A stretch of 45,448 bases of DNA, taken from positions 1 to 45,448 of the forward strand of contig JBKHKH010000001.1 in NCBI GenBank assembly GCA_046537735.1, read 5' to 3'. Below, one piece after another: positions 2,647 through 22,210 of this stretch (positions within the stretch are counted from its first letter, which is position 1; the number at the start of each line of letters is the position of its first letter). The stretch is from Archaeoglobaceae archaeon (lineage in GTDB: Archaea; Halobacteriota; Archaeoglobi; Archaeoglobales; Archaeoglobaceae). The notes below the pieces were generated by a model that saw only the letters and a program-made list of their open reading frames with translations, had not been told where the DNA came from and searched no databases. The translations under genes were made by a program, and so were the position numbers.

Positions 2647-3060
2647 CTAAGTTCTTACAGAATGTTTGGCTCCGCATGCCAGACACTTCAAAAATAATAC
2701 TCTATCCTCTTTAACGAGTTCAGTATCAGGAGCTCCACACTCTTTACAGATAACAAACTCCTTAACGTAATTGTCAACCTCTCTCTGGATGTCCTCTTCG
2801 GTAAATTTACCCTGTAAAATCACTCTACCGCTCTCCAGAAAACCAGCAGTACCCAGAGCCTTTACCAGCTGCTTGTAGAGATGCTTTTCATCCCTATTGA
2901 TGTCCTTAGCTACACTCGCAAAATTCTTGATGATAGTTCTGCTCCCCTCCCTCTGAGTACTGACTTTGGGAAGCTTAAACCTCTCTCTCTTAATCAATTC
3001 TTCAGGGAGCTCTTCTATGGCTTTTTCAAGTAGATCCTCGTAACTTTTCATTTTTATCAC
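2647..3060 (-). CDS. eif2b: Translation initiation factor aIF2 beta subunit
   Basis: 137 aa. N-terminal YEDLLEKA helix, central domain, and C-terminal C4 zinc ribbon CKECGAPDT...CLACGA. Confidence 0.92.
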   Translation of the reverse strand: MIKMKSYEDLLEKAIEELPEELIKRERFKLPKVSTQREGSRTIIKNFASVAKDINRDEKHLYKQLVKALGTAGFLESGRVILQGKFTEEDIQREVDNYVKEFVICKECGAPDTELVKEDRVLFLKCLACGAKHSVRT

Positions 3061-3075
3061 CTATTCCATCACATA

Positions 3076-3513
3076 TTACATATCATCTTTAGAGTAATAA
3101 ATCATGTTCTTCCAGTTCAAACCAATTTCTTTTACTACCTTAAAAATAGTTTTCCCAGGGTCTTCTAAACAGTAAAAAAGGTGGGAGTTGCATTTGCAAT
3201 CCGAGCAACCGAAACCCTTTATCTGGGAGAATACAGCCGAAAGACCCCCAGCAAGAGAGCACTCCAACTTCTTGTCAGGGATGCCTAGAGCGTATAATGG
3301 TTCAGCGCTGATGGTAAGGTAGTCGATGTGCCACCACAACTTTTTTTCTTTCATAAAGTGCCGTTTTATTCTCTTTTCCAGGTTGTTCATGGCACTGCCG
3401 GTATAGATATAGTAACCTGGGTTGAAGTCTATTAGCCCCAGCTTTCCAATCCCTATTTTCCTAGCTGATGAGAGGTGGGTTATAAGGAGGTAGCTGCCTT
3501 TTAGTGTGCCCAT
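3076..3513 (-). CDS. GIY-YIG superfamily (DUF123 / Uri-type) endonuclease-like protein
   Basis: GSYLL...GYYIYTGSA...LEKRIKRH motifs and C-terminal Cys cluster GCSDCKC. Start trimmed to the ATG at 3511-3513 (MGTLKGSY). Confidence 0.75.
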   Translation of the reverse strand: MGTLKGSYLLITHLSSARKIGIGKLGLIDFNPGYYIYTGSAMNNLEKRIKRHFMKEKKLWWHIDYLTISAEPLYALGIPDKKLECSLAGGLSAVFSQIKGFGCSDCKCNSHLFYCLEDPGKTIFKVVKEIGLNWKNMIYYSKDDM

Positions 3514-3860
3514 CCTATGGAGAATCAATTAGGAGGTTAAGTAACTTTTTACTGTTGTGGTGGAGGTGGAGAAGAGAAGTTACTATTTCCAAATATCCAT
3601 CCGAAAGAGCCTTAGGAAAGGTTTTTGATGATTTTAACCATATACAGAAATATATCAAAAAAGATATATAAGAACAGATCGTTTTATATCTTGGGAGAGT
3701 GAAATTAAGGATAACCAAGGAGACTGGGAGTCGACTACCAATAAATACTATTAAATATTAAAGTTGATAATAAACAGTTACACTTGGATTCCAAAGCATT
3801 TTAAATCTCTGTACTGAAGAATAATCAGTCATTATATCCAACAATAAGGAGAGGATTGAA

Positions 3861-5453: not shown

Positions 5454-5480
5454 GCTAAACCGGACTTGGGGAGAGTTGGC

Positions 5481-6044
5481 ATGAAGATAAAAGTGGCTGT
5501 GGTGCTTCTCACTGTAGCTTTAATCCTGTCGTTTATCGCTCCATCGGAGGCGTTTTTGGGTGATTATTACAAGCTGATCTATCTTCACTTGCCTCTATCT
5601 ATTATATCATTCGCTTCACTGTTCTTGTTACCGGCAGCAACTTATCTTAACTGGAGGTCCCGGAATATGGCGGTAGCAACCATTATTTTTCTGTCGGTGA
5701 ATTTAGGTCTTTCAGCTTTATTTATGCAGGCTGCATGGGGAGGTGTATCTACCGCAGAACCGAGGGCTGTATTCAGTATATTCCTGCTGCTGTTGCTCAT
5801 CTTTTTCCTTGTCTGTTTGATGCTGTCCAGGAATGTGGCTCTAGTTTACTCTGTAGTGCAGTTGGTTCTGGCTATCTGGCTCTATCAGGAGGTATCTAAA
5901 GCTCCTTTTCAATTACACCCCATCTCTCTGGTTGATATGGGATTGCTTATGAAACTGCCTCTTGTATTTACCTTCCCAGCACTGGTATTGATCTATTACA
6001 GGCTCACGGAGATAAATTGGAGCTCCTTAAAATCAATAAAATAG
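5481..6044 (+). CDS. Six-TM integral membrane protein, faintly CcmC/CcsA-like
   Basis: Six hydrophobic segments. YKLIYLHLPLSI and AAWGG...EPRAVFSIF faintly recall CcmC helices, but the Trp-rich WGxxWxWD motif is absent. Start trimmed to ATG 5481 after GGGGAGAG. Confidence 0.6.
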   Translation: MKIKVAVVLLTVALILSFIAPSEAFLGDYYKLIYLHLPLSIISFASLFLLPAATYLNWRSRNMAVATIIFLSVNLGLSALFMQAAWGGVSTAEPRAVFSIFLLLLLIFFLVCLMLSRNVALVYSVVQLVLAIWLYQEVSKAPFQLHPISLVDMGLLMKLPLVFTFPALVLIYYRLTEINWSSLKSIK

Positions 6045-6088
6045 AAAAGAGAAGAAATTTAATGGAATTGTTTATTCATCCGGCTTAT

Positions 6089-7141
6089 TCAGTTCTGGCC
6101 CTCTTCAGCGGAAGGCGCTTGTGACGTGTGAGCGCTGAAATCTTCTTTGGGGCCCTCCTGCTTGTCGCCCTCTTTAGTCAGTGCTGCTATGAGGCATCCT
6201 CTCGCCACGTTATAGATGGGCTCTTTAGCTTTATTTATGTTTGAAACGTCAACTGATAGCTTTGCATCTGCCAATCTCTTCTCGAACATGTCTATGAATC
6301 CTTTAGGTCTGGCACTGCCTCCGGCAATAGCGATGGGGAACTCAGCTTCCGGTGGTGTGACTTCGGTCAATCTTTTTCGCAGGTTCTGGATAATATAAGT
6401 TGTCAAAGCGTCATAATAAATGGACAGAGCACCTTCAACGCTTCCCAGCTCAAACTCGGTGTCCAGAGCGAATGACTTCTCTTTGATGGAAGTAACTCTC
6501 TCCTTGGTCATGCCTGTGGCAATCGCTACCTGTTCATCGATCCAGTCCCCACCTCTGGCAATGGAGAAGGATACAATTGGTGTTGCCATGTATGCCACGG
6601 TAACGTTTGTTAGGCCGGCACCTATACTAACCCCAATCCCTGTAAAGTTTTGCTTGGCCAGCTCGGAATATATCACTGCAAGCCCCTCGTCTATTACATG
6701 GGTTTCGTAGCCCAATCGCTTGGCAAGAGCCTCTATGGTCTTCTTATGGTAGAGCACGTTAATGTCGGAATCTACAGGATTGGCTGGGGACGATATGCAT
6801 GCCACTTCATTGGGTCTGGAAGGCCTCGAGAGAACCTTCTCTATTATCAGCTTGATCATCGGAATCGATTCCTTCTCTTCGGGGCTAATTATTCCGTACT
6901 TCATGGGACGTCTAACGTTCCTCTTGAAGACGTTGGCGAACTTGAAAGCGTCATCGCCCAAAATATGGAATTTATCACCCTTCTCTATATACAATACATT
7001 AGTAGAATCCAGCATGTTCTTGGTCAGATCACTGGCATCGATCTCTAGAAATGCGTTCCTTTCCTGGGCGAAAACAGTCGAGTCCCCCTCCTTTTCCGCA
7101 CAAATTATGTTCATGGTCCCTACATCAATACCTTTTCCCAT
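6089..7141 (-). CDS. Actin/Hsp70-superfamily ATPase (divergent archaeal actin-like protein)
   Basis: Phosphate-1 GIDVGTMN, phosphate-2 GVSIGAGLTNVTV and adenosine motif IAIAGGSARPKGF, in the order and spacing of MreB/ParM/FtsA-like proteins. About 350 aa with an acidic, disordered C-terminal end. ATG at 7139-7141 lies 5 nt after the upstream stop. Confidence 0.8.
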   Translation of the reverse strand: MGKGIDVGTMNIICAEKEGDSTVFAQERNAFLEIDASDLTKNMLDSTNVLYIEKGDKFHILGDDAFKFANVFKRNVRRPMKYGIISPEEKESIPMIKLIIEKVLSRPSRPNEVACISSPANPVDSDINVLYHKKTIEALAKRLGYETHVIDEGLAVIYSELAKQNFTGIGVSIGAGLTNVTVAYMATPIVSFSIARGGDWIDEQVAIATGMTKERVTSIKEKSFALDTEFELGSVEGALSIYYDALTTYIIQNLRKRLTEVTPPEAEFPIAIAGGSARPKGFIDMFEKRLADAKLSVDVSNINKAKEPIYNVARGCLIAALTKEGDKQEGPKEDFSAHTSQAPSAEEGQN

Positions 7142-7146
7142 TTTTA

Positions 7147-7902
7147 TCAACTCCCAAACAACCTAAATCTTTTCTTTCCTTCCTCCTCTTCTTCATTGTT
7201 TATAGTAGTTTCTTTTAATAAATCTGAGATCTCATCTAATTCATCATCTTTGACTTCCACTTTCCCGGACTGAACATTTCTCAGGCTTCTGACCTCATCG
7301 ATGTCGTCTTTAACTCTGGTGGTTTCTCTGCTGCTGGTAAATGATTTACTGGGTCTGAAGCCTTCCATGTCCACATCCTTAAATCTCAAACCTGAATCGG
7401 AAAACTCTACTATCCTTCTGGTCGATTCTTCAATGGCCCGATCGACCTCTCTCTCAATATCTTCGTCGGTGTACTCGGGTTGCTTTTCCCCCTTAATGCT
7501 AACAGGTACACCCTCGAGGAGGTTGAGCACGGCATTGGCAAAGGAGTTGGCCACCAGTATAGTGATCCCTCCTGCGTAGAGAAGGATTATGTAGGAAATA
7601 TTGGGATAAGCCCATCCCCGGGGGTAGTCAAAAGCAAATTTAAGCAAACCGATTACACAAAGGGCAAAACCAGCGGGTATCACATAATTGGTGTAAACAC
7701 TCCTCTGCTTTATCATTAAATTGAGTCCGGTGAGCGACACTGCAAGGCCGAAAGCCACCATGCTGTAGGTGAAACTGATTTGAGCTGGCTCAGAATTCCT
7801 GGTGAGGTTTACAGCAACTGCAAATCCTACACCAATTAGGGCCAGAATTATTCCAGCTAAAAACGTGAGCGAGGCCGTATAATATTTCAGCTTTGGACTC
7901 AT
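7147..7902 (-). CDS. 4-TM membrane protein with about 115-aa highly charged cytoplasmic tail
   Basis: Four hydrophobic helices in the first 135 aa, then a Glu/Asp/Lys/Arg-rich tail ending NNEEEEEGKKRFRLFGS. Immediately upstream of the actin-like gene. Confidence 0.7.
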   Translation of the reverse strand: MSPKLKYYTASLTFLAGIILALIGVGFAVAVNLTRNSEPAQISFTYSMVAFGLAVSLTGLNLMIKQRSVYTNYVIPAGFALCVIGLLKFAFDYPRGWAYPNISYIILLYAGGITILVANSFANAVLNLLEGVPVSIKGEKQPEYTDEDIEREVDRAIEESTRRIVEFSDSGLRFKDVDMEGFRPSKSFTSSRETTRVKDDIDEVRSLRNVQSGKVEVKDDELDEISDLLKETTINNEEEEEGKKRFRLFGS

Positions 7903-7926
7903 CCTGACAGGATTTACAACTCTAAG

Positions 7927-7934
7927 TATAAATA
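7927..7934 (-). promoter_or_regulatory. TATA-like box for the membrane-protein/actin-like operon
   Basis: Reverse strand TATTTATA sits about 25-30 nt upstream of the ATG at 7902, implying a leaderless or very short leader. A G7 run (7964-7970) lies further upstream. Confidence 0.3.
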
Positions 7935-8074
7935 ATTTCCTTAATTAATGAATACTATATTTTCCCCCCCAAAATTAACACAGAGGGCAAATATAACTGG
8001 AGATTCAGCCTATCCAGATAATAGAATAAAATAAAATCAAGATCAAACTGTTTTAAATTAAAAATTGGAACGTA

Positions 8075-9229
8075 TTATTCGTATCTTAAAGCCTCTATGG
8101 GTTCAAGGTTGCTGGCCTTCCATGCCGGGTATATCCCGCTGAGCACTGCCACCAGTATTCCAAAACCTACTCCCTCGATAATATATATTGCTGTTGTTGC
8201 TGTGAACAGGTATTCGACGCTCTCCAGAACTATCATGTTGATAGCGAAGCCACCCAGAATGCTTAATATACCTCCAATGGCACCACCCACCACTCCCAGG
8301 ATTAGAGCCTCCAACAGAAATATTCTGAGTATAACTTGTCTGTAAGCCCCTATAGCCCTCATAACACCAATTTCCTTGGTCCTCTCGATGGTGGACATCA
8401 GCATGATGTTCAATATGCTCACTCCAGCTACCAGCAAGGAGATCCCTGCTATGGCCATTAAAAAGGCGGTGATCTGTCGAAATGCCTCATTAATGCTATC
8501 CAGTATTTGTCTCATCTCAAAGACCTGAACTTTTTCCTCTCTTAGGTTGATCCTTCCCTCTACATGCTCCATGAATTCGTCCACGTCATTGATGCTCTCC
8601 ACCCTGACTATTATCTGGGTGTAACCTTCATCGAAGGTGTTATCGAAGTCGTCCATCTGGAGAAAGACCACGTTATTGGGGTTTATGTCATATCTGACCT
8701 CTTCTTTGAGTATGGTATTGACCCTGAAGTCTCTTCCTGCAACCGTTAGCTTACTCCCTTCTCTGAGGTTAAAATTGTCGGCGATGCTCCCTCCAACTAC
8801 ACAGCCACCTCTCTTCAGCTTCACATCTTCTCCCCCATCCTCGGCCTGAAAGAGGTCACCGATATTGTTCCCCTCAACGCCATAGATGGTAGAGTAAACC
8901 CTATCTGATTTATACTCGATAAGATCTCTGCTGCTTTTTATGGGGATGAAAGTCTCGATCCCCCGTAAGTTCCTTATCTTATCCACCACGTCTTTATCTA
9001 TCTCGGAATAGCCTTCACCTGTTGCGGGGAATATCTGCACCTGGGTGGCCAGGTCCTCAAAGTTCTGGGTCACAGATGCTCTCAGACTCTCCCCGAAGAT
9101 GCCTATGGATGCTATGGCCATGACACCAATAATTATGCCAATGATTGCTAAGGAACTCCTCACTTTGGTCCTAAGCAGATTTCTCCTGGCCAGTTCAAGG
9201 TACACCGGAATCACCGCCCGTGTTACCAT
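8075..9229 (-). CDS. MacB/FtsX-type ABC transporter permease
   Basis: N-terminal LELARRNLLRTKVRSSL + TM1, large extracytoplasmic domain of about 220 aa, and a C-terminal FtsX 3-TM bundle. Start trimmed to ATG 9227-9229; overlaps the ATPase gene by 35 nt. Confidence 0.87.
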   Translation of the reverse strand: MVTRAVIPVYLELARRNLLRTKVRSSLAIIGIIIGVMAIASIGIFGESLRASVTQNFEDLATQVQIFPATGEGYSEIDKDVVDKIRNLRGIETFIPIKSSRDLIEYKSDRVYSTIYGVEGNNIGDLFQAEDGGEDVKLKRGGCVVGGSIADNFNLREGSKLTVAGRDFRVNTILKEEVRYDINPNNVVFLQMDDFDNTFDEGYTQIIVRVESINDVDEFMEHVEGRINLREEKVQVFEMRQILDSINEAFRQITAFLMAIAGISLLVAGVSILNIMLMSTIERTKEIGVMRAIGAYRQVILRIFLLEALILGVVGGAIGGILSILGGFAINMIVLESVEYLFTATTAIYIIEGVGFGILVAVLSGIYPAWKASNLEPIEALRYE

Positions 9230-9893
9230 CGGCAATTTTCCCGTCAACCAATCTGATCGCCCTATGTGCGTAATTGGAGATGTAGGGGTCGTGGGTGACC
9301 AGGACCACTGTTAATCCCTGTTCCTTGTTCAGATCCTCGATCATCTTCATTACCACTTCTCCACTCCTGGTGTCCAGGTTTCCTGTGGGCTCATCGCACA
9401 GCAAAATGGAGGGGTTGTTGGATAATGCTCTCGCAATGGAAACTCTCTGCTGTTGACCACCGCTCATCTCAGTGGGTTTTCTGTTCAGCTCTTTCTCAAG
9501 GCCCACAAGCTTCAGTATGTCCTTGGCTTTCTCTCTTTCAGACCTGGATGCCTGGCGGAAGATCATGGGGAGCTCCACGTTCTCGAAAGCGGTTAAGGTG
9601 GGAATGAGGTTGTAGTGCTGGAAGACAAAGCCGATGGCGTCCCTCCTCAACCTGGTCAACTCGCTATCAGATAGGTCTGAAGTGTTGGTCCCGTTTATAA
9701 TCACTTTACCGCTGGTGGGCTTGTCAAGACATCCCAGCACATTGAGGAACGTGGATTTACCGCTGCCCGAAGGACCCATGACGGATAAGAACTCCCCTTC
9801 CGCTACTTTCAGGGAGATGCCATCAAGGGCTCTGACCTCCATGGGTCCACTCTGATAGATCTTGCTTACCTCTTGCAGCTCAATAATGTTCAT
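9195..9893 (-). CDS. ABC transporter ATP-binding protein (LolD/MacB family)
   Basis: Walker A GPSGSGKST, Q-loop FVFQHYNL, signature [15 protein letters not shown], Walker [14 protein letters not shown]-loop VTHD. Confidence 0.93.
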   Translation of the reverse strand: MNIIELQEVSKIYQSGPMEVRALDGISLKVAEGEFLSVMGPSGSGKSTFLNVLGCLDKPTSGKVIINGTNTSDLSDSELTRLRRDAIGFVFQHYNLIPTLTAFENVELPMIFRQASRSEREKAKDILKLVGLEKELNRKPTEMSGGQQQRVSIARALSNNPSILLCDEPTGNLDTRSGEVVMKMIEDLNKEQGLTVVLVTHDPYISNYAHRAIRLVDGKIADGNTGGDSGVP

Positions 9894-9894
9894 A

Positions 9895-11256
9895 CTACTT
9901 TCTCGATTTTATCCAGATAACTGCTACCAGAGCAAGAACAACTATGGCGATTACGGAGCCTATCATCATCAGGTTGCCACCTCCGGTCGCTTGACTGACC
10001 TTCTCTTCTGGAAGGGATATTTCCTGGCCAAGTTCCACCTTCTCTCCCAGCTCATTGTTCCATGAAACGGTCAGGAAGCCTTTGCTGGCGTTCATGTTGG
10101 AGAACTCGAACTCAAAGCTGTCGAAGTCCGAAACATCGATCGAGCCCAGATAGAAAGTCTTGATCTCGTTGCCCACCTGCATGGAGAGGAGGACATTGTA
10201 AACAGTGCTTCTTCCGCTGTTGCTCACGTCCCCGGAGATGGTGGTGCCGTCAACTTCTTTCTCTGTCCTGATGTTGCTGACGGAGACCGGTTTTTCTTCC
10301 AGAGCAAGGAATCTCACCTCTTTTGTCTCTGAGTACTGATTATTCAATTCGTCCTTATATGAGATGTCCATTTGGATGGTGTTCTCGCCTGTATTCCGGG
10401 GAGAGAACTGGAATGAAACTCTTGAACTCTTTTCGCTGCCCAAGGAGGCTATTTCCTTGGTTTTCTCTGAGTCTTTGAGGGAGGCTGTGACTTTAATGGA
10501 GTATATGGTGTCGTTCCTCAAGTTGGAGACGGTCACATCGAGGGGGACCACATCTCGGACCGGCACGGAGTTGTAGGGGATTGAAGCGTTGATTATTATC
10601 CCTTTTGTCTCACGGTATTCAGGGGTTACAGTTTTTACTACCTGATGGTAGTTCCTGCCATTGTAGTATGATATCTTGAAGGAAAGGTCTTCTCTGCTTT
10701 CTGGGGTATATCTGAAGGCTCCTTTCTGGGAGGAGGTTAAATCACCGAGATAGATTATCTTGGGGTCTGCGTCGAAGCGAGCCTCAACGGACACCTCCTT
10801 TATGCTGCCAATGGGATTGGTAAGATGGAAATTCAGGTTGTTGACCTCATTGAGCTTGAGTGGCGAGGTCAGGATTATGTCCGGCTGTTTGTTCTCTACA
10901 TTGACTAGGATAAGGCGCTTGACTGTTTCGTTTTCTGTCCGGACGTGCATCTCGATCGAATAGCTACCTGCTTGTTTTGCTTGGACGGTGAAGGGAAAAT
11001 CATAGGTGGAACCAGTAGGAATTGTGCCTACATCGCTAATCGAGTCAGGCTCCACATTGAGCTTGGTGTAAAGTACTATCTCTCTGACCTTAACATCATA
11101 TGCTCCCTTGTTGCTCAGGGTAACAGTGTAATCTACTTTATCTCCAGGTAAAATCGTATCAGGGGTGTGCTCAACGTCCACAGAAACTTTAGCTGACGCT
11201 ATGGGTAAAAACATTAGTAACAATAGGATCGATAAGCAAATCTTAACTTTATTCAT
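9895..11256 (-). CDS. Secreted, C-terminally anchored CARDB/COG1361-like repeat protein
   Basis: Signal peptide MNKVKICLSILLLLMFLPIASA, repeated beta-sandwich-like units (VDYTVTLSNKGAYDVKV, LDVTVSNLRNDTIYSIKV, ISGDVSNSGRSTVYNV) and a C-terminal TM + basic tail (IAIVVLALVAVIWIKSRK). Start set to ATG 11254-11256. The 608-aa track ORF extends spuriously through the Yip1 gene. Confidence 0.8.
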   Translation of the reverse strand: MNKVKICLSILLLLMFLPIASAKVSVDVEHTPDTILPGDKVDYTVTLSNKGAYDVKVREIVLYTKLNVEPDSISDVGTIPTGSTYDFPFTVQAKQAGSYSIEMHVRTENETVKRLILVNVENKQPDIILTSPLKLNEVNNLNFHLTNPIGSIKEVSVEARFDADPKIIYLGDLTSSQKGAFRYTPESREDLSFKISYYNGRNYHQVVKTVTPEYRETKGIIINASIPYNSVPVRDVVPLDVTVSNLRNDTIYSIKVTASLKDSEKTKEIASLGSEKSSRVSFQFSPRNTGENTIQMDISYKDELNNQYSETKEVRFLALEEKPVSVSNIRTEKEVDGTTISGDVSNSGRSTVYNVLLSMQVGNEIKTFYLGSIDVSDFDSFEFEFSNMNASKGFLTVSWNNELGEKVELGQEISLPEEKVSQATGGGNLMMIGSVIAIVVLALVAVIWIKSRK

Positions 11257-11303
11257 GGTTTTTTTGGATTTAAGTGGGTTTAAATATTTTATTAGTGGCA
11301 GAT

Positions 11304-11954
11304 TTAGATGTAGCCCCACAATGTATAGGCTGTATAACCGACGTAGGCCAGAAATGGGAGCAGGACAGTTATCGCAGCATTTCTGGTGGATAGCCCTCTG
11401 GCGTGCTTTAGTCCGAAGGTCCAGATGGTGAGGCTCCACACTCCGAATGCAAGGCTGACTATTATGCTGAAATAGACGAAATCTGCGGGAAGCATGGTGC
11501 TCATGATCTCGTTCACGAACTCTCCGCTCTGGATGTCCGTCATGCTCAGTTTTGGAACTCTTGCGCTGGCGATATACTGGGCACCAACAGCGGTAGTGAT
11601 GGCGGAAGCAAGTATGGAGGGCATAAAACCATATCCTGTGAACTCCAGGGTCCTCTTGAACAAGCCCTGTCCACCGAAATAAGATGAAATGACGTGCATT
11701 ATGGCCGAGACCGCCACCCAAACGATCATCATAACGGCAAAAGAACCTATGAACCCAATATATGCTCCGAGCCTGACGATTCCAGCGAAATCAGATGGAA
11801 AAGCTTCAGCCAGTTTGATGGTGATCAAGAACTGGTTAATGCCCCCGATTATGGACAGGACAAGGATTATCAATAGAGGCACCTTCAAACTGATCTCTTT
11901 CCCCTTTAATTCTTCAAAAAATCTACCGGGGTCGGATATTAGATTCAATGCCAT
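11304..11954 (-). CDS. Yip1-domain membrane protein
   Basis: NxxxDPGRFFEEL start followed by five hydrophobic helices, the archaeal Yip1/DUF1282-like pattern. Confidence 0.75.
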   Translation of the reverse strand: MALNLISDPGRFFEELKGKEISLKVPLLIILVLSIIGGINQFLITIKLAEAFPSDFAGIVRLGAYIGFIGSFAVMMIVWVAVSAIMHVISSYFGGQGLFKRTLEFTGYGFMPSILASAITTAVGAQYIASARVPKLSMTDIQSGEFVNEIMSTMLPADFVYFSIIVSLAFGVWSLTIWTFGLKHARGLSTRNAAITVLLPFLAYVGYTAYTLWGYI

Positions 11955-12022
11955 GCCCTCACTTGGCTGTGGAGTATAAAAATTTTTGTCATCTCCTGAT
12001 TAAGCTTAGCTACTTCCCTGAT

Positions 12023-14353
12023 TTAGCTCACGAACTCTTTGGTGACCTTCTCGATGTTCATTTTGGATATGAATCTCAGTCCGGGTAGAATGGACAGGGA
12101 GAGAATAACGAACACCATGATTATGGTTAAAACATATGTTCTGAAGTAGATGACGAAGGGGATCTGGAAAAGCTCGCTGGAGAATGCCAGCATGAACAGG
12201 TAGGCAGCGGCGTAGCTCAGGGGGACGCCCACTATTGTTCCGGTCACCCCTATCAACATATTCTCTATAAAGAGAGAAGACCCCATCTGTCTGGTGGTGT
12301 AGCCCAGCACCCTCAGGGTGGCCAGCTCTTTCCTTCTCTCCATAATATTGATGGAAGTGGCATTGAAGATGGCAGCGAAACCCAGACTGGCGCCAAAGGC
12401 CAGGGAGAAGAAGATAAATACGTAGGAGAACTCCATCATATCATTTATATACTCTATCACCACCGCCTTGGAGTTCACTTCCAGCACCCCGGGGAGGTCT
12501 TCCAGCTGTTCCTGGACTCTATCATGTTCTCCGGGTTTGGCTTTCACTATGATGGTGTTATAACCATCCGCACTCAGAACTTCTTGAAGGTGGTCAAGGG
12601 AGGCGTAGGCGTTTGGTGTTAGAGAGTGCGAGAAAGTACGGTGAACCTCACTCTTTTTCTTCCCTTTTTCGGTCACAAAGGTAAATTGCTGCCCTTCTAG
12701 CAGACTTAAATTCTGTGCAGTGCTTTGAGGAAGCAGTATCCCATCAGGGGGTGGCATGATCCGATTGCCGTTCAGATCATAGATGTTGTACAGATTCTGG
12801 TTACCCATACCTATGAGATTTATGGATTTGGAGTCATCACCCCTCTCTATTAGCATCCAGGTCATGATTAGGGGTTGAGCCTCCTCCACTCCCTGAATGG
12901 ATTTTACCTCCTTCAATGCGGTGTTATCCACGTAAGATGAGTATCTAACTTCGAAATCGTAGTTCATTACTTTATTGAATTGCAGGTCGAGGGTCTCCTC
13001 AATAGCATCCAGAAAGACCACAGAATTCATGATTAGCATTATGGCCGCCACCACGCTGAAAGCAGAATAAGCAGCCCTTTTTCTGTTCCTGAAGGTGTTT
13101 CTAAGGCTCAACCTGGTCAGTGTAGATAGTTTGATGAAGGAGAATAACTTATCTACTTCCAGACCTTTGGTCTGGGTCTCGAATGAACCTCTTAGCGACT
13201 GAACGATTTCCAGCTCAGCAGCTCTTTTGGCTATGAAAATGCCTGAAATAGCGGGTGCAAGAGTACCGATGAACAGGCCCAAAAGCAGTATCTCGATGTG
13301 TGGTCTGGCTACGTAATAGGGGACGTTGATAACATCCGTGTACTGCATGGTCATCACTATGGACAGAGTATAGCCTACAATTATACCTGCAACTGAGCCT
13401 ATGACTCCAATGAACAGGGAGTGCTTGAGGTAGTGGAACAGTATTGTATTTTTTCTGAATCCCAGAGCTCTGAGAACCCCGATGTTGTGTGTCTGCTCAT
13501 TTATAAGCCTGACAAGCAGGACATAAACTGCAAATATGGATATGAATAGAATAAATCCGGGTATCAGTATGGCCAGCTCTCTGAAACCCTCCAGATCGAG
13601 CTGTAGCGCCTGGTTGCTGGGCTGCTCTTCTCTGGTGTAGAAGTTCTTTATGCCGTAGGGTTCAAAGATCTGTCTAGCTCTATTGAGTATCTCCTCTCTC
13701 CGGCTCTCATCATAGACAGTAAAATGGACTTCATTGATTTCCCCCTGATGTCCAAAGCTCTCCAGGGTCTCATAGGGAACAAAAGCTATACCCAGGGTTC
13801 GAGGAGAAACAAAGAAGCTGCCCTCCTCAATTATCCAGATATACTCAGGACTGTATGCCAATCCGGTAATCTTTAGCTGCAACTTCTCCCCATCGATCCT
13901 GGGGGATATGGTCTCTCCTGCATGTATGTTGTGATAGTCCGCAAACTGTTTCAACAGGATGGCAGAACTGTAAGCATTCTTGGGGATGTAATCGCCCTCT
14001 ACATACAGCTGGTTAACTTTGGGCTGCTCTCCATCAGGAACGGATATGAGTATAAGGGTTGCCTGCTGGCCCCTGATCTCTAGGGTGGATTTGATGGACA
14101 ACCTGCCCTCTACTTCCTTGATCCCATCTAGCTTCTTCAAGTCTTTGAGGAGGGATGCGGGTGCGGGGTTGAACTTTATTCCTGCATCCTCGAAATCGGT
14201 TCTTTGATAAAAGTCGTTGTAGGTATCGGAGAGATTCAGATAGGAAATGTAGAAGGAGGTGAAGAGAGCAATTCCTAAAAATATTATGAAAGTAACTCCC
14301 AAGAACATCCCTTTTCGGGACTTAATGTCCCTCCACACCTTCCTATTAAGCAT
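12023..14353 (-). CDS. ABC transporter permease with two FtsX domains (fused double MacB-like permease)
   Basis: 776 aa. The unit of TM1 + large external domain + 3-TM FtsX bundle occurs twice (RALGFRK... and LRVLGYTTRQ... signature loops). Confidence 0.87.
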   Translation of the reverse strand: MLNRKVWRDIKSRKGMFLGVTFIIFLGIALFTSFYISYLNLSDTYNDFYQRTDFEDAGIKFNPAPASLLKDLKKLDGIKEVEGRLSIKSTLEIRGQQATLILISVPDGEQPKVNQLYVEGDYIPKNAYSSAILLKQFADYHNIHAGETISPRIDGEKLQLKITGLAYSPEYIWIIEEGSFFVSPRTLGIAFVPYETLESFGHQGEINEVHFTVYDESRREEILNRARQIFEPYGIKNFYTREEQPSNQALQLDLEGFRELAILIPGFILFISIFAVYVLLVRLINEQTHNIGVLRALGFRKNTILFHYLKHSLFIGVIGSVAGIIVGYTLSIVMTMQYTDVINVPYYVARPHIEILLLGLFIGTLAPAISGIFIAKRAAELEIVQSLRGSFETQTKGLEVDKLFSFIKLSTLTRLSLRNTFRNRKRAAYSAFSVVAAIMLIMNSVVFLDAIEETLDLQFNKVMNYDFEVRYSSYVDNTALKEVKSIQGVEEAQPLIMTWMLIERGDDSKSINLIGMGNQNLYNIYDLNGNRIMPPPDGILLPQSTAQNLSLLEGQQFTFVTEKGKKKSEVHRTFSHSLTPNAYASLDHLQEVLSADGYNTIIVKAKPGEHDRVQEQLEDLPGVLEVNSKAVVIEYINDMMEFSYVFIFFSLAFGASLGFAAIFNATSINIMERRKELATLRVLGYTTRQMGSSLFIENMLIGVTGTIVGVPLSYAAAYLFMLAFSSELFQIPFVIYFRTYVLTIIMVFVILSLSILPGLRFISKMNIEKVTKEFVS

Positions 14354-14381
14354 CAGATCACCAGAACACCGTTAAGGACTG

Positions 14382-15077
14382 CTACCAGTATAGTTTCTCG
14401 GGGTCTAAAGGTTGTTCATTCTCCACGATATTATCGATGGTGCCGTCCTTTAAGCGAACTATTCTATCCGCCATTTGGGCTATGGATGAGTTGTGAGTAA
14501 CCACGATGAAGGTTATCTTCTCCTTGTGGCACACTTCTCTCATGTACTTCAGCACCTTTTTCCCCGTCTCAAAATCCAGATTCCCCGTGGGCTCGTCTGC
14601 CAGTATGAGGGGCGGATTCTTTACCAGCGCCCTGGCGATGGAGACTCTCTGTTGTTCACCACCGGAGAGCTCGGAAGGAAAATGATCGGCCCTCTCCTTC
14701 AACCCCACCGTATCCAGAACCTCATCGGCATCTCTGGGCTTCTCTACCAGCTCGGAAGCCAGCTGAACGTTCTCTCTGGCGGTTAGGGTAGGTATCAGAT
14801 TGAAGAACTGGAACACGAAACCGATATTCTCTCTTCTGTGGTAGGTCAGCCCCTCTTCGTCAAGTTGGGTAACGTCCGTGCCTTTGAACACCACTTTACC
14901 CTTGTTGGGGACATCGATCCCTCCGATTATGTTGAGGAGAGTGGTCTTCCCCGAACCGCTCGGTCCCAGGACGACGATAAACTCCCCCTCATCTATCTCG
15001 AAGTAGACTTCTCTCAGGGCATGGACTTCTTCAGCTCCGATCCTGAAGATCTTCCACACATTCTCCAGAGTAAGCAT
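14382..15077 (-). CDS. ABC transporter ATP-binding protein (LolD/MacB family)
   Basis: Walker [10 protein letters not shown], signature [15 protein letters not shown], Walker [14 protein letters not shown]-loop VTHN. Start trimmed to ATG 15075-15077 (MLTLENVWK), 4 nt after the upstream stop. Confidence 0.93.
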
Positions 15078-15081
15078 GCTG

Positions 15082-16566
15082 CTACTTCTTCCTCCAATTA
15101 TATTTATAGCCCACAAATGCAATCACTATCAGCACTATCAGAACTGCGGCGATCTGTCCGAGGTAGCTCTTTTCTGCTATGTACTGGGAGAAGCTCCTGG
15201 TGACCGTGTGTTGTTCAAATGTGGTGTCCATGTAGTTGATATCTACTTCGATATGGTGGTCTCCGGAGGAGCCTGCCGTGAGATCGAAGGATGCTGTGGC
15301 AGAATCCCCACTCTCCAGACTGCCGATGAAGTAGCTACTCCTTCCCTTGAAATCTGGCGGGAGCTTTAAGGCCAGACTGACCGCTTTGGCATCCTGGTTA
15401 CCGCTGTTCTCTACCTGAAGAGATAGCTTGTAGTTCTCGCCTGCCGTGGGCGTGTCCGGCGAAGTAAAGACTCCTGCTATATCCAGGCTGATCCTGCCCG
15501 GTGAGCTGACGAACACCGGGAAGTCTTTAGTAGAAGAATACGTCTTTCCAGACTCGTCCTCATAGCTCATGTCCAGGATGAATGTATGGTCTCCAATGGA
15601 GGTCTTGTTTTGGGCTTTTAAGTTGAATTTAGCCGTTTTGGTACTGTCTCTGTTCACAGTCCCCAGGAATTTGGTACCTTCTCCTTCAAAATTTTGAGGG
15701 ATGTTCAAGGAAAGCCTGGTGTTCTCTGCATTGCTTGTGCCTGAGTTCTCGATTCCCACATTCAGTGTAAATTCATCTTCGGGGAATACTCTGTCGGGAG
15801 TGGTGGCCACTTCTGAGATAATCAATTGAGGAGTTCCTTTCACCTTCAAGGGAATGGGAATGGTCTCTGATTGAGGCTCTCCAAACTCATTTCTGTAGCT
15901 CAATTGGAGGTCCAGTTGATATACCCCCGTGCTAACGGATTTGTCTGCGGTGAGGGAAAAGGCAAGCTCTTTCTGTTTATTGCTCTCCCAGCTGTCGAAA
16001 ACAACCTTTCCCAGATTGCTAACAATTTTTTCTGGTGTGCTCATGGAGATGCTGACGTCCTTGGCTCTTCCACCCCCATTCAAGACCTTGATGCTGTAAT
16101 CCTCTGTTCCGGAAGGTGCGATGGTCAACTCTTTAGAGACACTGAACTGGGGCTCGTCAATCACTTTTAAGGCTATTACCCTGTTGATGCTTGCCTTGTA
16201 GAGGTATTCACCGTAATCGTAATCTATTCTGGCCTTTATTTCGTATATACCTGCTTTTTCCGCTCTCATCTTCAATTGGGCGGAGCTCGACCCCGTGGCC
16301 AGATCGCCCAGGGAAAGAATGATGCTTGAGACTTCTTTCCCTCCACTGAGAATAGATAGATCATCTTCTTTCTCGTAAAGAAATAGTTTAACGTTTTTGG
16401 CATTGCCACCAGCGTTCTGCAGGTCCACACTCAGTATAAAGTCTCCTGTACCCGGATTTTCCGGCACAGTATGATGATCTACAGTTATAATCGGCTGACC
16501 TGACACGCCAGCAGCTAAAAAACTCAAGATAAGTATCGAAAACAAAAATTTCCACCAAATCCTCAT
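15082..16566 (-). CDS. Secreted, C-terminally anchored CARDB/COG1361-like repeat protein
   Basis: Signal peptide MRIWWKFLFSILILSFLAAGVSG. Four repeats with the VxxxNxGxxxAxxV pattern (SVDLQNAGGNAKNV, IKVLNGGGRAKDV, VGIENSGTSNAENT, LQVENSGNQDAKAV). C-terminal TM + KYNWRKK. Confidence 0.82.
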   Translation of the reverse strand: MRIWWKFLFSILILSFLAAGVSGQPIITVDHHTVPENPGTGDFILSVDLQNAGGNAKNVKLFLYEKEDDLSILSGGKEVSSIILSLGDLATGSSSAQLKMRAEKAGIYEIKARIDYDYGEYLYKASINRVIALKVIDEPQFSVSKELTIAPSGTEDYSIKVLNGGGRAKDVSISMSTPEKIVSNLGKVVFDSWESNKQKELAFSLTADKSVSTGVYQLDLQLSYRNEFGEPQSETIPIPLKVKGTPQLIISEVATTPDRVFPEDEFTLNVGIENSGTSNAENTRLSLNIPQNFEGEGTKFLGTVNRDSTKTAKFNLKAQNKTSIGDHTFILDMSYEDESGKTYSSTKDFPVFVSSPGRISLDIAGVFTSPDTPTAGENYKLSLQVENSGNQDAKAVSLALKLPPDFKGRSSYFIGSLESGDSATASFDLTAGSSGDHHIEVDINYMDTTFEQHTVTRSFSQYIAEKSYLGQIAAVLIVLIVIAFVGYKYNWRKK

Positions 16567-17102
16567 TTATCCAACCTCCTGCATTTAACAAAATCTTTGG
16601 CAAGCTTCCTGTAATTCTCAATATCACCGATATCGTAGAACATTGAATATAAGGCAAGCCCATCGAACATGGCCATTACTGCAGTTGCCGTTACAGCCGG
16701 GTCCTTGATGCCCTCTTTTTCAAATAAAGGGATCACAATTTTGTTCAATTCCTCATAAAACCCTCTGAAAAGCTCAAAATCCCCAGAATGGAGCACTTTA
16801 CCGCTGATGTAGGCAAAGAAGTTCATTACATGGGGTAAATTGATAAAGTTGTCTACTGTAACATCGATCAAGTCGTCAACGCTATGTATCTTTTTAATGG
16901 ACTCTGTAAACAGCTTATTGAACGTGTAGTATGCCACTTCTTTCTCCAGATTATCTTTGCTCTTAAAATGGTAGAAAATAAGCCCTTTTGATACTCCTAC
17001 GGCTTCAGCCACCTCATCAACGGTTACCATTTGAGGCGGTTTGGATGTATAGAGATCGAGAGCGTTCTCCAGTATCCTGGTTTTAACTGACTGGTCAGTC
17101 AT
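16563..17102 (-). CDS. TetR/AcrR family transcriptional regulator
   Basis: N-terminal HTH TVDEVAEAVGVSKGLIFYHFKSKDNL and an all-helical C-terminal domain. ATG at 17100-17102 preferred over the upstream in-frame TTG. The stop overlaps the next start (ATGA). Confidence 0.87.
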   Translation of the reverse strand: MTDQSVKTRILENALDLYTSKPPQMVTVDEVAEAVGVSKGLIFYHFKSKDNLEKEVAYYTFNKLFTESIKKIHSVDDLIDVTVDNFINLPHVMNFFAYISGKVLHSGDFELFRGFYEELNKIVIPLFEKEGIKDPAVTATAVMAMFDGLALYSMFYDIGDIENYRKLAKDFVKCRRLDK

Positions 17103-17123
17103 ATTGACTAACTGGTCAGTCAA
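17083..17123 (-). promoter_or_regulatory. Tandem pair of 20-bp imperfect palindromes overlapping the tetR start (candidate operators)
   Basis: Reverse strand reads TTGACTGACCAGTTAGTCAAT ATGACTGACCAGTCAGTTAAA, a direct repeat of about 21 nt. Copy 1 is TTGACTgACc/aGTtAGTCAA (8 of 10 symmetric). Copy 2 contains ACTGAC-CA-GTCAGT. Confidence 0.4.
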
Positions 17124-17182
17124 AGTATGTAAGGCTTGTGGATGCTCCAGTCCACAATTACAACGAATCTGTGTTCATTCTT

Positions 17183-18085
17183 CTAATGTTCTAAAAGACC
17201 TTTAACAGCGCCCTGTTTGATTTCGGGGTCAAAGAAGAATATTATCAGGTTGACCACCAGTAGAACCACAAAGCCTGCTAAACCAGTTACTCCGATAAGC
17301 AATTCATTCCCTCCTTTTAACACCATTATGGATATACCGTAGGTGGCGTTGACTGTTCCGTGGATGATGGCGGCGGCTATAACTGATTTGCCTTTTATTC
17401 TTACGTAACTGAATACGGGAGCCAGCAGAACGGCCCACCCGATCATCATAAACACACCTATAACTGGGTACTGGGGGTAGTTGTGGCCCTGGAGTATGAG
17501 GGGTGCGTGCCACACCCCCCAGATCACACCAATGACCATGGATGCTCTCCAGAAGTCCATATGATCAAGCTCTCTCTGGAGGAATCCTCTCCATCCCAGC
17601 TCTTCACCAAATCCAGCCACAGCATTGATGGTGATACCGGCGACAAGACCCTGGATTAATGCCAGCCAGATGGGGTGGACAGGAGACTCTTCTATCTGCT
17701 TTTTGATCAATTCCATCTGCTCTGGTGTGAGAACGGACTGGTATCTTTCCAGCATACCCTCCAGTCCAGGAGAGTAGGTCACATCAGGGAATAACAGGCT
17801 GACCCCCAGGGCGGCAAAGGCTATAACTGGCGGCAAGAGCCAGGCAACCAGCCACCACCGATTTACTTTGAAGGAAATGCCTAACGGTCTTCTAACTGCT
17901 TCACCATAGTATTTTTGAACAGCAATGGCACACACCATGGGAACGAACATGTAGGCGGTGGCCAGCACCATGGCGTTAAGGGTGTTCCATTCGCCCCCTG
18001 AAGCAACAAAAACAGCTACCATCAACCAGTCGATGAGGAAGATCAGTCCTATAAACAATCCGATCTTCTTAAGCCGGCTGCTCAT
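17183..18085 (-). CDS. CPBP (CAAX/Abi) family intramembrane glutamic protease
   Basis: Motifs FGEELGWRGF (EExxxR), IWGVWHAP (FxxxH-like) and IIHGTVNA (HxxxN) in a multi-TM protein. Overlaps the MMPL gene stop by 17 nt. Confidence 0.85.
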   Translation of the reverse strand: MSSRLKKIGLFIGLIFLIDWLMVAVFVASGGEWNTLNAMVLATAYMFVPMVCAIAVQKYYGEAVRRPLGISFKVNRWWLVAWLLPPVIAFAALGVSLLFPDVTYSPGLEGMLERYQSVLTPEQMELIKKQIEESPVHPIWLALIQGLVAGITINAVAGFGEELGWRGFLQRELDHMDFWRASMVIGVIWGVWHAPLILQGHNYPQYPVIGVFMMIGWAVLLAPVFSYVRIKGKSVIAAAIIHGTVNATYGISIMVLKGGNELLIGVTGLAGFVVLLVVNLIIFFFDPEIKQGAVKGLLEH

Positions 18086-20291
18086 TCAGACCACGATTTT
18101 CTTTTCTGAACCTCTCTGTGAATATGAGGAAGGCGGGCACCAGAATTAGAGCGGCAAGAAGACAGAAAATTATGGTGGCTACACTTACCAGCCCAAAATC
18201 CCTCATGATGGGGAAGGGAGATACTGTCATCGCTGCGAAGCCTCCGGCCATGGTGAGACCTGAAGTCATAATAGCTTTTCCTATGTTCTGAATAGTGATA
18301 TCTACCGACTCTTCTGGCGACCTCCCCAGCCGCCTCTCCTCGAAGTAGCGCTCCATTACGTGAATGGAGAAATCTATTCCCAGTCCCACGGTCAAAGAGT
18401 TCAGGCTGGCAGAGATCAAGGTCCTGGGAACTCCAGTGAGATACATCAAAGCACCCACTAGGATTATGACCGTTGTGATGGGTACCAGGGGGACGACGGC
18501 ACTTCTCAAGCTCCTATAAACCACCAGCAGGAGGAGGGTGACCAGGACGAAGCTGGCTATGGTCATGTTATTCTGGCCGTTGATGATCAAGTCGGCCACG
18601 AACATCTTGAGGACCACATCACCGGTCAAATAGAACCCCTCTTCCAGTCCGAAGAAGTTGATATCCTCTTTGATCCTGTCATAAAGGTCTTTGAACTCGA
18701 TCCAGTCCATGGAGGAAACGGAGAAATAGATGGCTATGGTGTTCCCGCTGAGGTATCTCTGCATCTGGTCCGAAGGCATGGCATCCAGCAGATAGAACAA
18801 TTTGGTTTGACTATCCGGCATTTCACCGTCGTTGTACGATTTAACCAGGGTGTTGAGGCTCTCATAACCCACTACCTGCGGCTCAACGGATGTGATATAC
18901 TGTGAAAGAGAATCTATTCTTTTAAGATAATCCAGATTCAGTTTATCGGTTTCAATAACAGCAATGATCTCCTCAGAGCTGCCGATTACACTCTCCAGCT
19001 CGTTCATCTTTCTGATGGCAGGCAGGTCCTGGGGGATATATTCATAGAAATCTGTCTGGAGGTCGAGGTTGGAGTAACCGTAGTAACCGGTAGTCACCAT
19101 CAACAAGGCAATCAACAGAACTGTTTTGGGCCTTTCAGTGGGTATTCTGGCGATCTCCTTGAGCACAATGCCCAGGATGTCCCTTCCTTCTTCCGTCTTT
19201 ACAGTATCTCTTTTACCTCTCTCCATCAGTATGAGGACAGCAGGAAGGAACGTAAGGCTTAGAAGAAAGGCTATAACCAGCCCGATAGCTGATAAAAAAC
19301 CGAACCAGCTCAGAGCCGGAACACCGGAGAACACCATGGATAGAAATCCTATAACTGTGGTGATCATCGCCAGGCTGAGAGCCACCCCCACGCTTTTGAT
19401 GGAGTTGACCACGGCATTGACACTGGTGAAACCCTTGCGCATTTCCTCTTCAAATCTGGCCTGGAACTGAGCAGCGTACTCAATGCTTAGACCTATAAGG
19501 ATAGGAAAGAAGCCGTTAGTAACATCCGTTATCGGTATCCCAAAAATGGGCATTAATCCGTAGACCATAACGGTAGTAAAGATAGATATCACCAGGGGGA
19601 GCATCAGGGACCTCTTTCTGGCCACCACTCCTCTGAAGACTACCACCAGGATCAAGACCATTAAAATAATGGCAGCAGCTCCCATCATCATCATACTCTG
19701 TCCAATGGCCTGGTTGACCTGATACCTGACCAGAGGGTTCCCTGTAGCCTCTGTGACCACTCCAACCGGTTTAGGGATAGTTTCTATTTTTCGATCGATC
19801 TCCTGGGCTATCTCATCGTATTTGGATTCAGAAGCTGTAATCTCAATCCTTATGAGAGCAAAACTATTCTTGGGGACATAGAAGCTGGCATAATTATTTA
19901 CGTAGCTCTGAAGCGTGGCTCTGTCCTGAGGCAAATATCCAAAGTTTTTTACTGCAGAGCTGGCCGCAGAATTGGTCTCTCCAACCCCCTGGATGCTGGA
20001 GACAGAGTCTTCAAGCTCCAGCATATACTGGAAAACTTCGTAAGTTACCACATTGTCCCCTTTGACAAAAATGTAGGCTGCGCCCACAGAGGCACCAAAG
20101 TCTTTGGAGTAGAGTTTGTATTGGGTGAACTCTTTATGCTCCTCAGAAAAGTAGGTCTCAAAGCCCTGGTCCATCTTGACCTGCTGGCTGAAATGTATGC
20201 CAGCTATAAACAACAAGATTACGGCAACGATCACTGCCAGAGGGGCTCTGGTCGCCAATTTGGAGAAAAACTCAAAGATTGCTTTTACCAT
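18069..20291 (-). CDS. MMPL/RND-superfamily exporter (COG1033-like)
   Basis: 740 aa. The unit of one TM + large external loop + 5-TM bundle occurs twice, the typical RND/MMPL architecture. Confidence 0.87.
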   Translation of the reverse strand: MVKAIFEFFSKLATRAPLAVIVAVILLFIAGIHFSQQVKMDQGFETYFSEEHKEFTQYKLYSKDFGASVGAAYIFVKGDNVVTYEVFQYMLELEDSVSSIQGVGETNSAASSAVKNFGYLPQDRATLQSYVNNYASFYVPKNSFALIRIEITASESKYDEIAQEIDRKIETIPKPVGVVTEATGNPLVRYQVNQAIGQSMMMMGAAAIILMVLILVVVFRGVVARKRSLMLPLVISIFTTVMVYGLMPIFGIPITDVTNGFFPILIGLSIEYAAQFQARFEEEMRKGFTSVNAVVNSIKSVGVALSLAMITTVIGFLSMVFSGVPALSWFGFLSAIGLVIAFLLSLTFLPAVLILMERGKRDTVKTEEGRDILGIVLKEIARIPTERPKTVLLIALLMVTTGYYGYSNLDLQTDFYEYIPQDLPAIRKMNELESVIGSSEEIIAVIETDKLNLDYLKRIDSLSQYITSVEPQVVGYESLNTLVKSYNDGEMPDSQTKLFYLLDAMPSDQMQRYLSGNTIAIYFSVSSMDWIEFKDLYDRIKEDINFFGLEEGFYLTGDVVLKMFVADLIINGQNNMTIASFVLVTLLLLVVYRSLRSAVVPLVPITTVIILVGALMYLTGVPRTLISASLNSLTVGLGIDFSIHVMERYFEERRLGRSPEESVDITIQNIGKAIMTSGLTMAGGFAAMTVSPFPIMRDFGLVSVATIIFCLLAALILVPAFLIFTERFRKENRGLNEQPA

Positions 20292-20294
20292 AGC

Positions 20295-22175: not shown

Positions 22176-22210
22176 GACTACCACCGTGTAGTAGCAAAGG
22201 CTACGACAAT

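Follow-up and report, generated by a model that had tools for sequence, protein, structure and literature searches.

A volactin-family actin homologue and a CdpA-like membrane protein, its candidate anchor, form a gene pair conserved across archaeal classes

The window analyzed in this study is a stretch of 45,448 nucleotides (nt) from an Archaeoglobaceae archaeon (assembly GCA_046537735.1, contig JBKHKH010000001.1, positions 1 to 45,448), and its subject is a pair of adjacent minus-strand genes which encode a CdpA-like membrane protein and, directly downstream, an actin-fold ATPase of the Volactin family. A first-pass annotation made from the sequence alone had described these genes as a two-gene module, and every sequence feature it listed was recovered in its place, including the 5-nt gap (7146-7142) between the stop codon of gene 1 and the ATG of gene 2 at 7141. 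We regard it as probable that the locus encodes volactin filaments together with a CdpA-like protein that anchors or organises them at the membrane, and this is the best reading overall. The proteins of the window are 94-96% identical to those of Archaeoglobaceae metagenome-assembled genomes (MAGs), and window DNA was recovered in hypersaline-lake and microbial-mat metagenomes. The two genes are:

7902-7147, minus strand: gene 1, cdpA-like, encoding a 251-amino-acid (aa) membrane protein of PF23600 (DUF7139 / CdpA_N), with its TGA at 7149-7147
7141-6089, minus strand: gene 2, volA-like, for an actin-fold ATPase of 350 aa that belongs to the Volactin family, PF25216

The gene 1 product ends in ...NNEEEEEGKKRFRLFGS. 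For gene 2 the longest mechanical open reading frame (ORF) begins upstream of the ATG, with a TTG at 7150. Since M1, K3 and G4 of volactin are invariant in an alignment of 18 homologues, the ATG at 7141 was taken as the true volactin start.

The ATPase matched the Pfam Volactin profile with 418.9 bits (cutoff 35, E = 2e-125), and its residues 1-320 covered profile positions 1-321 of 321, which amounts to the full length. Other families of the actin fold scored far lower. The Pfam MreB_Mbl profile reached 34 bits over a partial stretch only, while the FtsA domain (14.6 bits) and DDR (12.7 bits) were both sub-threshold. Among the NCBIfam models, those for MreB gave 25.7-33.7 bits against cutoffs of 293-515, while MamK reached 35.2 bits and salactin 13.7 bits, the cutoff being 400 for both. 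Salactin, an archaeal actin-like protein of Halobacterium salinarum whose filaments are dynamically unstable, is on this score a separate family from that of the window ATPase. The protein, described earlier as a divergent actin that does not look like canonical MreB, is not an unclassified one and belongs to a named family. Volactin is a polymerising actin-like family, and the profile classification that the first-pass annotation had proposed as a check placed the protein in no kinase, EutJ or reactivase family.

Volactin itself has no solved structure, and the nearest entries in a sequence-profile search of the PDB were MamK (27 bits) and MreB (26 bits). A Foldseek search with a weak AlphaFold2 (AF2) model of the window volactin placed MreB first, with top matches that were all MreB or MamK and with EutJ at rank 40; because the model was poor, the TM-scores of approximately 0.5 merely rank families and carry no information on surfaces. 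All three nucleotide-binding motifs of the actin/Hsp70 fold that had been noticed in the protein are present, and their key residues are invariant in the 18 homologues:

7109..7132, minus strand: phosphate-1 motif GIDVGTMN, residues 4-11, with G4, D6, G8, T9, M10 and N11 invariant
6605..6634, minus strand: phosphate-2 motif GVSIGAGLTN, residues 170-179, with G170, S172, G174, A175, G176, T178 and N179 invariant
6311..6328, minus strand: adenosine motif IAGGSA, residues 272-277, with G274 and G275 invariant

The motifs of the window protein align to those of haloarchaeal volactins which bear the published adenosine motif of the Haloferax volcanii protein HVO_2015 (VPVVVTGGTSSP) and to which the window volactin is 48-51% identical. 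Mean column identity in the 18-sequence volactin alignment was 70%.

The membrane protein passed the Pfam PF23600 (DUF7139) profile marginally, with 32.4 bits over residues 8-125 and a cutoff of 30. The same family was carried by all homologues found with a word-indexed protein search, which returned 16 matches for the single membrane protein and 45 for a 22-sequence profile, none of them haloarchaeal. Newer Pfam labels on public gene calls name this family CdpA_N. Taken together, the profile matches make the family assignments of both proteins, Volactin and CdpA_N, virtually certain. Profile searches of the membrane protein against Pfam and NCBIfam detected no enzymatic or transport domain. 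Its membrane-embedded part comprises the following features:

7513..7896, minus strand: four-helix transmembrane (TM) domain, residues 3-130, with AF2 helices at 3-31, 39-63, 71-95 and 101-130 (pLDDT 70-92)
7603-7626, minus strand: motif Y-P-x-x-W-x-Y-P in the predicted outer loop 3, residues 93-100, between TM3 and TM4

The four helices given by AF2 agree with the four TM segments that had been read from the 251-aa sequence and with the four-TM layout of CdpA_N. In an alignment of 22 diverse homologues, G17, G59, M63, F89, Y99, P100, G112 and F121 of the TM domain were invariant. Averaged over 81 homologues, K and R residues together numbered 2.3 at the N-terminus, 2.1 in loop 2 and 3.3 after TM4, compared with 0.9 in loop 1 and 0.2 in loop 3. 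Under the positive-inside rule, a cytoplasmic location follows for the N-terminus, loop 2 and the tail. Within the outer-loop motif, Y93 and W97 were at least 90% conserved among the diverse homologues in addition to the invariant Y99 and P100, a pattern that hints at contact with a partner or with lipid on the outer face of the membrane.

CdpA (HVO_0739) of H. volcanii anchors the division ring to the membrane through a four-TM N-terminal domain and organises FtsZ filaments through a disordered linker (PMC12126565). The window protein shares this layout of a CdpA_N four-TM domain followed by a long disordered cytoplasmic linker. CdpA works with SepF and CdpB and has 328 aa and a folded C-terminal domain at residues 285-328, whereas the window protein is without a folded C-terminal domain (AF2 pLDDT < 50), and CdpA is linked to a tubulin homologue (FtsZ) where the window protein is linked to an actin homologue. 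Under the definition of Liao et al., CdpA proper measures 260-400 aa and has its four TM segments within the N-terminal 75% of the protein. With 251 aa the window protein falls below this range, and it is referred to here as CdpA-like, not as CdpA proper.

A scan of species-representative genomes yielded 80 volactin loci, and hidden Markov models (HMMs) built from our own alignments were run over all ORFs of these loci. The loci came from Archaeoglobaceae, Methanolobus, Methanosarcina, Methanohalobium, Methanosalsum, Methanophagales (ANME-1), Candidatus Argoarchaeum and Thermoplasmatota. Two of them are cut by a contig end and were left out of the count, although one still shows the C-terminal fragment of the partner. 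Among the 78 testable loci, a homologue of the membrane protein lay directly upstream of volactin and on the same strand in 77 (Archaeoglobi, Methanosarcinales, ANME-1, GoM-Arc1 and Thermoplasmatota). The distance from the partner stop to the volactin start had a median of 13.5 nt and a maximum of 253 nt, and the genes were separated by at most 10 nt or overlapped in 35 of the 78 loci. The sole true exception (locus L046, 3998-4978) is a volactin without an upstream CdpA_N gene in the MAG CAZQTT, whose genome also holds the paired loci L001 and L005. This volactin is a third, more divergent paralogue, 68% identical and with GLDDGTMN in place of GIDVGTMN, and upstream of it are a divergent ORF for an acidic, coiled-coil-like protein of 118 aa and an ORF of 363 aa.

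Halobacteria were reached by tblastn of volactin against plasmid records, which located volactin homologues on five haloarchaeal replicons annotated as plasmids. The pair was found in the same arrangement on three of three haloarchaeal megaplasmids, from Haloarcula marismortui, Halogeometricum borinquense and Natrinema thermotolerans. There, the DUF7139 scores of the upstream proteins were 124-163 bits and the Volactin scores of the downstream ones 436-466 bits. In a reverse check three DUF7139 proteins were looked up, and volactin lay directly downstream of each. At the haloarchaeal plasmid loci L081, L082 and L083 the public labels are of no help or misleading, and read 'hypothetical protein' or 'cell division protein FtsA' for volactin and 'hypothetical protein' or 'permease' for the CdpA_N partner. 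According to independent gene calls, Ferroglobus placidus DSM 10642, a cultured organism, and Methanosarcina have the pair too.

The pairing, whose conservation had been named as a test of the two-gene module, thus extends over at least five classes. Its recurrence in 77 of 78 testable loci and the E value of the ATPase match lie well outside what chance would produce. Its surroundings do not follow it. No third gene was conserved across the loci, the best other family being present at 11 of 81 and absent from the window, and this includes cetZ, the volA neighbour in H. volcanii. The immediate neighbours in the window are unrelated as well (a MacB/FtsX ABC transporter, a family 2 glycosyltransferase (GT2) and housekeeping genes). 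In the lineage of the window the whole pair was duplicated as a unit (L001/L005, L002/L004 and L003/L006, from three MAGs), with volactins approximately 78% and partners approximately 70% identical between paralogous copies. The pair is an ancient, self-contained module which stays linked from Halobacteria to Thermoplasmatota while the flanking genes change. Such near-absolute linkage in changing surroundings across classes is strong evidence that the two genes work together, and a functional coupling of their products is highly likely on these grounds.

Behind the TM domain, the membrane protein carries a charged tail. Three of its features are of relevance to a possible contact with volactin:

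7150..7512, minus strand: cytoplasmic tail, residues 131-251, 121 aa, highly charged and mostly predicted disordered
7282..7317, minus strand: internal tail motif R-V-K-D-D-I-D-E-V-R-S-L (RVKDDIDEVRSL), residues 196-207, the most conserved short motif of the tail
7150..7176, minus strand: C-terminal basic/aromatic peptide KKRFRLFGS, residues 243-251, with an acidic run just before it

A charged cytoplasmic tail of approximately 115 aa had been claimed for this protein, and the measured 121 aa, their richness in D, E, K and R and their position by the positive-inside rule agree with it. The last 128 residues of the protein contain 34 D/E and 22 K/R. An acidic helix at residues 146-170 was modeled with a pLDDT of 54-70, while residues 171-251 stayed below 50 and showed no folded domain.

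Comparison of the 81 partners revealed that conservation of the tail is concentrated in its interior. Mean pairwise identity was 0.38 for the island formed by residues 193-210, almost the value of the TM domain (0.39), compared with 0.29 for the acidic helix (143-170) and 0.12-0.16 for the C-terminal 12-17 residues. In the internal motif, L207 was found in all 81 partners, D199 in 78, E203 in 70 and K198 in 67, and L229 in the next tail helix was likewise present in 81 of 81. A regular expression for the motif matched 67 of the 81 tails, as opposed to a mean of 3.4 in shuffled tails. A peptide that docks on a protein as highly conserved as volactin (70%) would be expected to be conserved too, so the internal motif is the likelier main contact, and residues 196-207 are our candidate for the volactin-binding element, as an inference from these alignments.

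The C-terminal end retains its character but not its sequence and is the least conserved part of the tail. Close homologues retain the motif K-[KR]-F-[RK]-L-F. In 74 of the 81 partners the net charge of the last 20 residues is positive. This segment is about four times richer in aromatic residues than the 40 before it, and the loose end pattern G-[LIF]-[LFM]-x-x-[ILM]-[RK]-x-[LMF]-F is common to haloarchaeal, Methanosarcina and Thermoplasmatota partners. On the other hand, several Archaeoglobaceae partners end without any aromatic residue (...ERMKKD and ...KGESPAGKGLT).

These features bear on a reading in which KKRFRLFGS inserts into the volactin filament like the ParR helix into ParM and acts as its sole or main tether. 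The basic, aromatic-rich character of the end and the pattern that recurs from haloarchaea to Thermoplasmatota speak for it, and binding of filament ends would fit the attachment by the tips observed in H. volcanii. In addition, the two paralogous modules of one genome differ mainly in this peptide (KKRFRLFGS versus SKYRRFIQKFSQ), as expected of a specificity determinant, and the difference could insulate the two systems from each other. However, the end has the lowest sequence conservation in the protein, next to a volactin with 70% column identity. It lacks aromatic residues altogether in the Archaeoglobaceae partners mentioned above, and a variable basic amphipathic end is equally typical of a membrane-binding helix. 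We therefore consider insertion of this peptide as the principal tether unlikely; the peptide may instead provide a second, lineage-specific contact or a membrane-binding amphipathic end.

The best studied relative of the window pair is that of H. volcanii, in which volactin (VolA, HVO_2015) forms dynamic filaments that bridge the cytoplasm and contact the membrane by their tips only (PMC10869688). In the same study, the volactin-binding proteins were described as unidentified, the dynamics of volactin were likened to those of ParM, and substrate transport along the filaments was raised as a possibility. The adjacency of HVO_2016 and HVO_2015 was noted in passing by Liao et al. 2025, who used HVO_2016 only as an outgroup (PMC12126565), and HVO_2016 was more abundant in disk-shaped cells, alongside VolA (Schiller et al., supplement). 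We found no paper on a characterisation of HVO_2016 or on this synteny beyond H. volcanii. Both H. volcanii proteins belong to the same Pfam families as the window pair (PF25216 and PF23600), HVO_2016 has four TM segments, and gene order and strand in the window equal those of the haloarchaeal relatives. The window partner differs from the haloarchaeal ones in its length (251 aa compared with approximately 300), in not being high-salt acidified and in its truncated C-terminal motif. The host of the window is an uncultured member of the Archaeoglobaceae from hypersaline mats, to which the disk/rod phenotype of H. volcanii is not transferable. The first-pass annotation had called this a type of system little characterised in euryarchaea; volactin had already been named and its CdpA-like neighbour in H. 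volcanii already remarked upon. What is new here is the breadth of conservation of the pair and the motifs of the tail.

An actin-fold polymer encoded beside a linking partner follows the same logic as ParM-ParR, MreB-RodZ, MamK-MamJ and the FtsA-FtsZ tail. The adaptors ParR, RodZ and MamJ are not homologous to the window partner, and unlike MreB, which hugs the membrane, volactin filaments bridge the cytoplasm and touch the membrane at their tips only. As the pair occurs together in almost all volactin-bearing archaea, the membrane protein is the best candidate for the membrane attachment site of the filament. In the reading we favour, volactin would form dynamic filaments in the cytoplasm, like its H. 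volcanii counterpart. The ends of these filaments would be nucleated, anchored or organised at the membrane by the CdpA-like protein, much as the FtsZ ring is organised by CdpA, the paralogue of that protein. The contact would most likely be made via conserved tail elements, chiefly the motif at residues 196-207 and the helix with the invariant L229, with the basic/aromatic C-terminus possibly adding a lineage-specific contact or an amphipathic membrane-binding end. The earlier proposal of a filament with its membrane tether is well founded in so far as the ATPase belongs to a polymerising family, the pair is conserved and the TM domain of the partner is the CdpA_N domain of a proven anchor, while the tethering itself is inferred. 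For direct anchoring or organisation of volactin by the CdpA-like protein, the balance tips only slightly in favour.

Several observations weigh against this reading. Polymerisation has been demonstrated solely for HVO_2015, in vivo (PMC10869688), a protein to which the window volactin is about 48-51% identical. In H. volcanii it was CdpA and not HVO_2016 that pulled down volactin, and this weakly (Log2FC 2.5, p = 0.06; PMC12126565). The existence of the orphan volactin at L046 implies that volactin is presumably able to act without a cis-encoded partner. The PF23600 score of the window protein is barely over the cutoff, and its assignment leans on transitive support from the homologues. Finally, the AF2 model of the window volactin, computed from the 18-sequence alignment, has a mean pLDDT of 65.6, with the N-terminal subdomain below 50.

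A more far-reaching version, which we put forward tentatively and hold to be less probable than anchoring at this locus, is that in all volactin-bearing archaea the tips of the filaments are anchored or nucleated by the CdpA-like protein, acting via [IV]-[RK]-[VI]-K-D-x-Phi-x-E-Phi-x-x-L, and that CdpA derives, as a paralogue, from an ancestral anchor of actin. Volactin-linked forms occur widely (Thermoplasmatota, Archaeoglobi, Methanosarcinales, ANME-1 and Halobacteria) and CdpA proper is reported in Haloarchaea only (PMC12126565), so CdpA would be the derived form. If this were true, a single family of membrane anchors would be shared by the actin-type and tubulin-type cytoskeletons of archaea. 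Confirmation of the anchor role would establish an archaeal linkage of actin to the membrane comparable in importance to RodZ-MreB and would join actin and FtsZ anchoring through one family. The locus and its approximately 80 relatives provide a specific anchor candidate and specific residues for the question of how volactin tips are held at the membrane (D199, L207, L229 and the C-terminal peptide), and H. volcanii (HVO_2016), Ferroglobus placidus and Methanosarcina are organisms suited to it.

Other explanations of the pair were weighed against anchoring. In one of them, the roles are reversed or regulatory, the CdpA-like protein being a cargo or effector positioned by volactin, or a regulator of polymerisation which links the filament to an envelope process via its outer loop. 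The conserved Y-P-x-x-W-x-Y-P of loop 3 suggests a partner outside the membrane, CdpA is itself multifunctional (PMC12126565), and the transport along volactin filaments considered by the H. volcanii authors would suit a cargo. Against it, no enzymatic or transport domain was detected in the partner; the present data do not separate this reading from anchoring. We regard it as unlikely.

The two remaining alternatives are both very improbable. According to the first, the ATPase does not polymerise but is an actin-fold enzyme or chaperone (sugar kinase, EutJ or diol-dehydratase reactivase) and its adjacency to the membrane protein is without cytoskeletal meaning; the sub-threshold DDR and FtsA-domain matches and the distant EutJ hit of the fold search point that way, but they are set against 419 bits on Volactin, top structure matches that are all MreB or MamK, and a family founder that polymerises in vivo. 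According to the second, the locus is a ParMRC-like DNA-segregation cassette, as the five plasmid-annotated haloarchaeal replicons and the ParM-like dynamics of volactin might suggest, but the module contains no DNA-binding protein, its partner is an integral membrane protein lacking a DNA-binding domain, the pair is chromosomal and among housekeeping genes in all other lineages, and the surroundings of the module hold no parC- or centromere-like repeat arrays, only chance two-copy repeats. Among the genes of the window there was also no ftsZ, sepF or cdpB.

Sequence signals around the two genes point to their joint expression from a putative promoter upstream of gene 1:

7927..7940, minus strand: predicted archaeal promoter, TATA box TTTATA at 7932-7927 with the purine-rich BRE-like stretch GGAAATTA just upstream
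7151..7155, minus strand: Shine-Dalgarno-like GGGAG within the last part of gene 1, 9 nt ahead of the volactin ATG
6029..6057, minus strand: T-rich tract downstream of the volactin stop codon, by sequence reading only a possible oligo-T terminator of the archaeal type

TTTATA lies 25-30 nt before the ATG of gene 1. The promoter stretch is invariant in L001-L003, ctaTTTATAc recurs with unchanged spacing in the paralogous loci L004-L006, which encode proteins approximately 70% identical, and TTTATA also occurs in L009. The TATA-like box reported earlier is therefore real, with its spacing kept in close relatives and paralogous loci. A G7 tract (7970-7964) that had been taken as a further mark of the promoter is present, but it varies even among relatives that are 94-96% identical, and it was rejected as a promoter element. 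Archaeal TATA boxes keep a usual spacing from the transcription start. Given this spacing, the distance to the ATG suggests a leaderless or near-leaderless mRNA. The position of GGGAG inside the end of gene 1 suggests translational coupling of the two genes. The locus is thus probably a bicistronic and leaderless operon, with the cdpA-like gene followed by the volA-like gene.

Two 151-nt contigs from a salt-lake metatranscriptome (approximately 95% identical) mapped to the volactin gene at 6683-6833 and 6979-7129. Both lie within the gene, neither spanning the gene junction, and at this identity a close relative appears to transcribe the volactin gene in situ. A plus-strand ORF at 5466-6044 (192 aa, very hydrophobic, no Pfam match) is convergent with the volactin gene and extends at its end into the T-rich tract.

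Elsewhere in the window, the minus strand from 8075 to 22184 carries recurring clusters in which secreted CARDB/DUF11-domain proteins are encoded together with ABC ATPases and FtsX/MacB-type permeases (8075-9247, 9195-9893, 9895-11721, 12023-14353, 14382-15122 and 15082-16566). Beyond them come genes for a TetR regulator, an Rce1-like protease, an MMPL transporter (18069-20291) and a further CARDB protein (20295-22184). No link between these clusters and the volactin module was found. Likewise unrelated to the pair, a gene for a 150-aa DUF123 / GIY-YIG-like protein (3076-3528, minus strand) adjoins the aIF2-beta gene (2647-3060).

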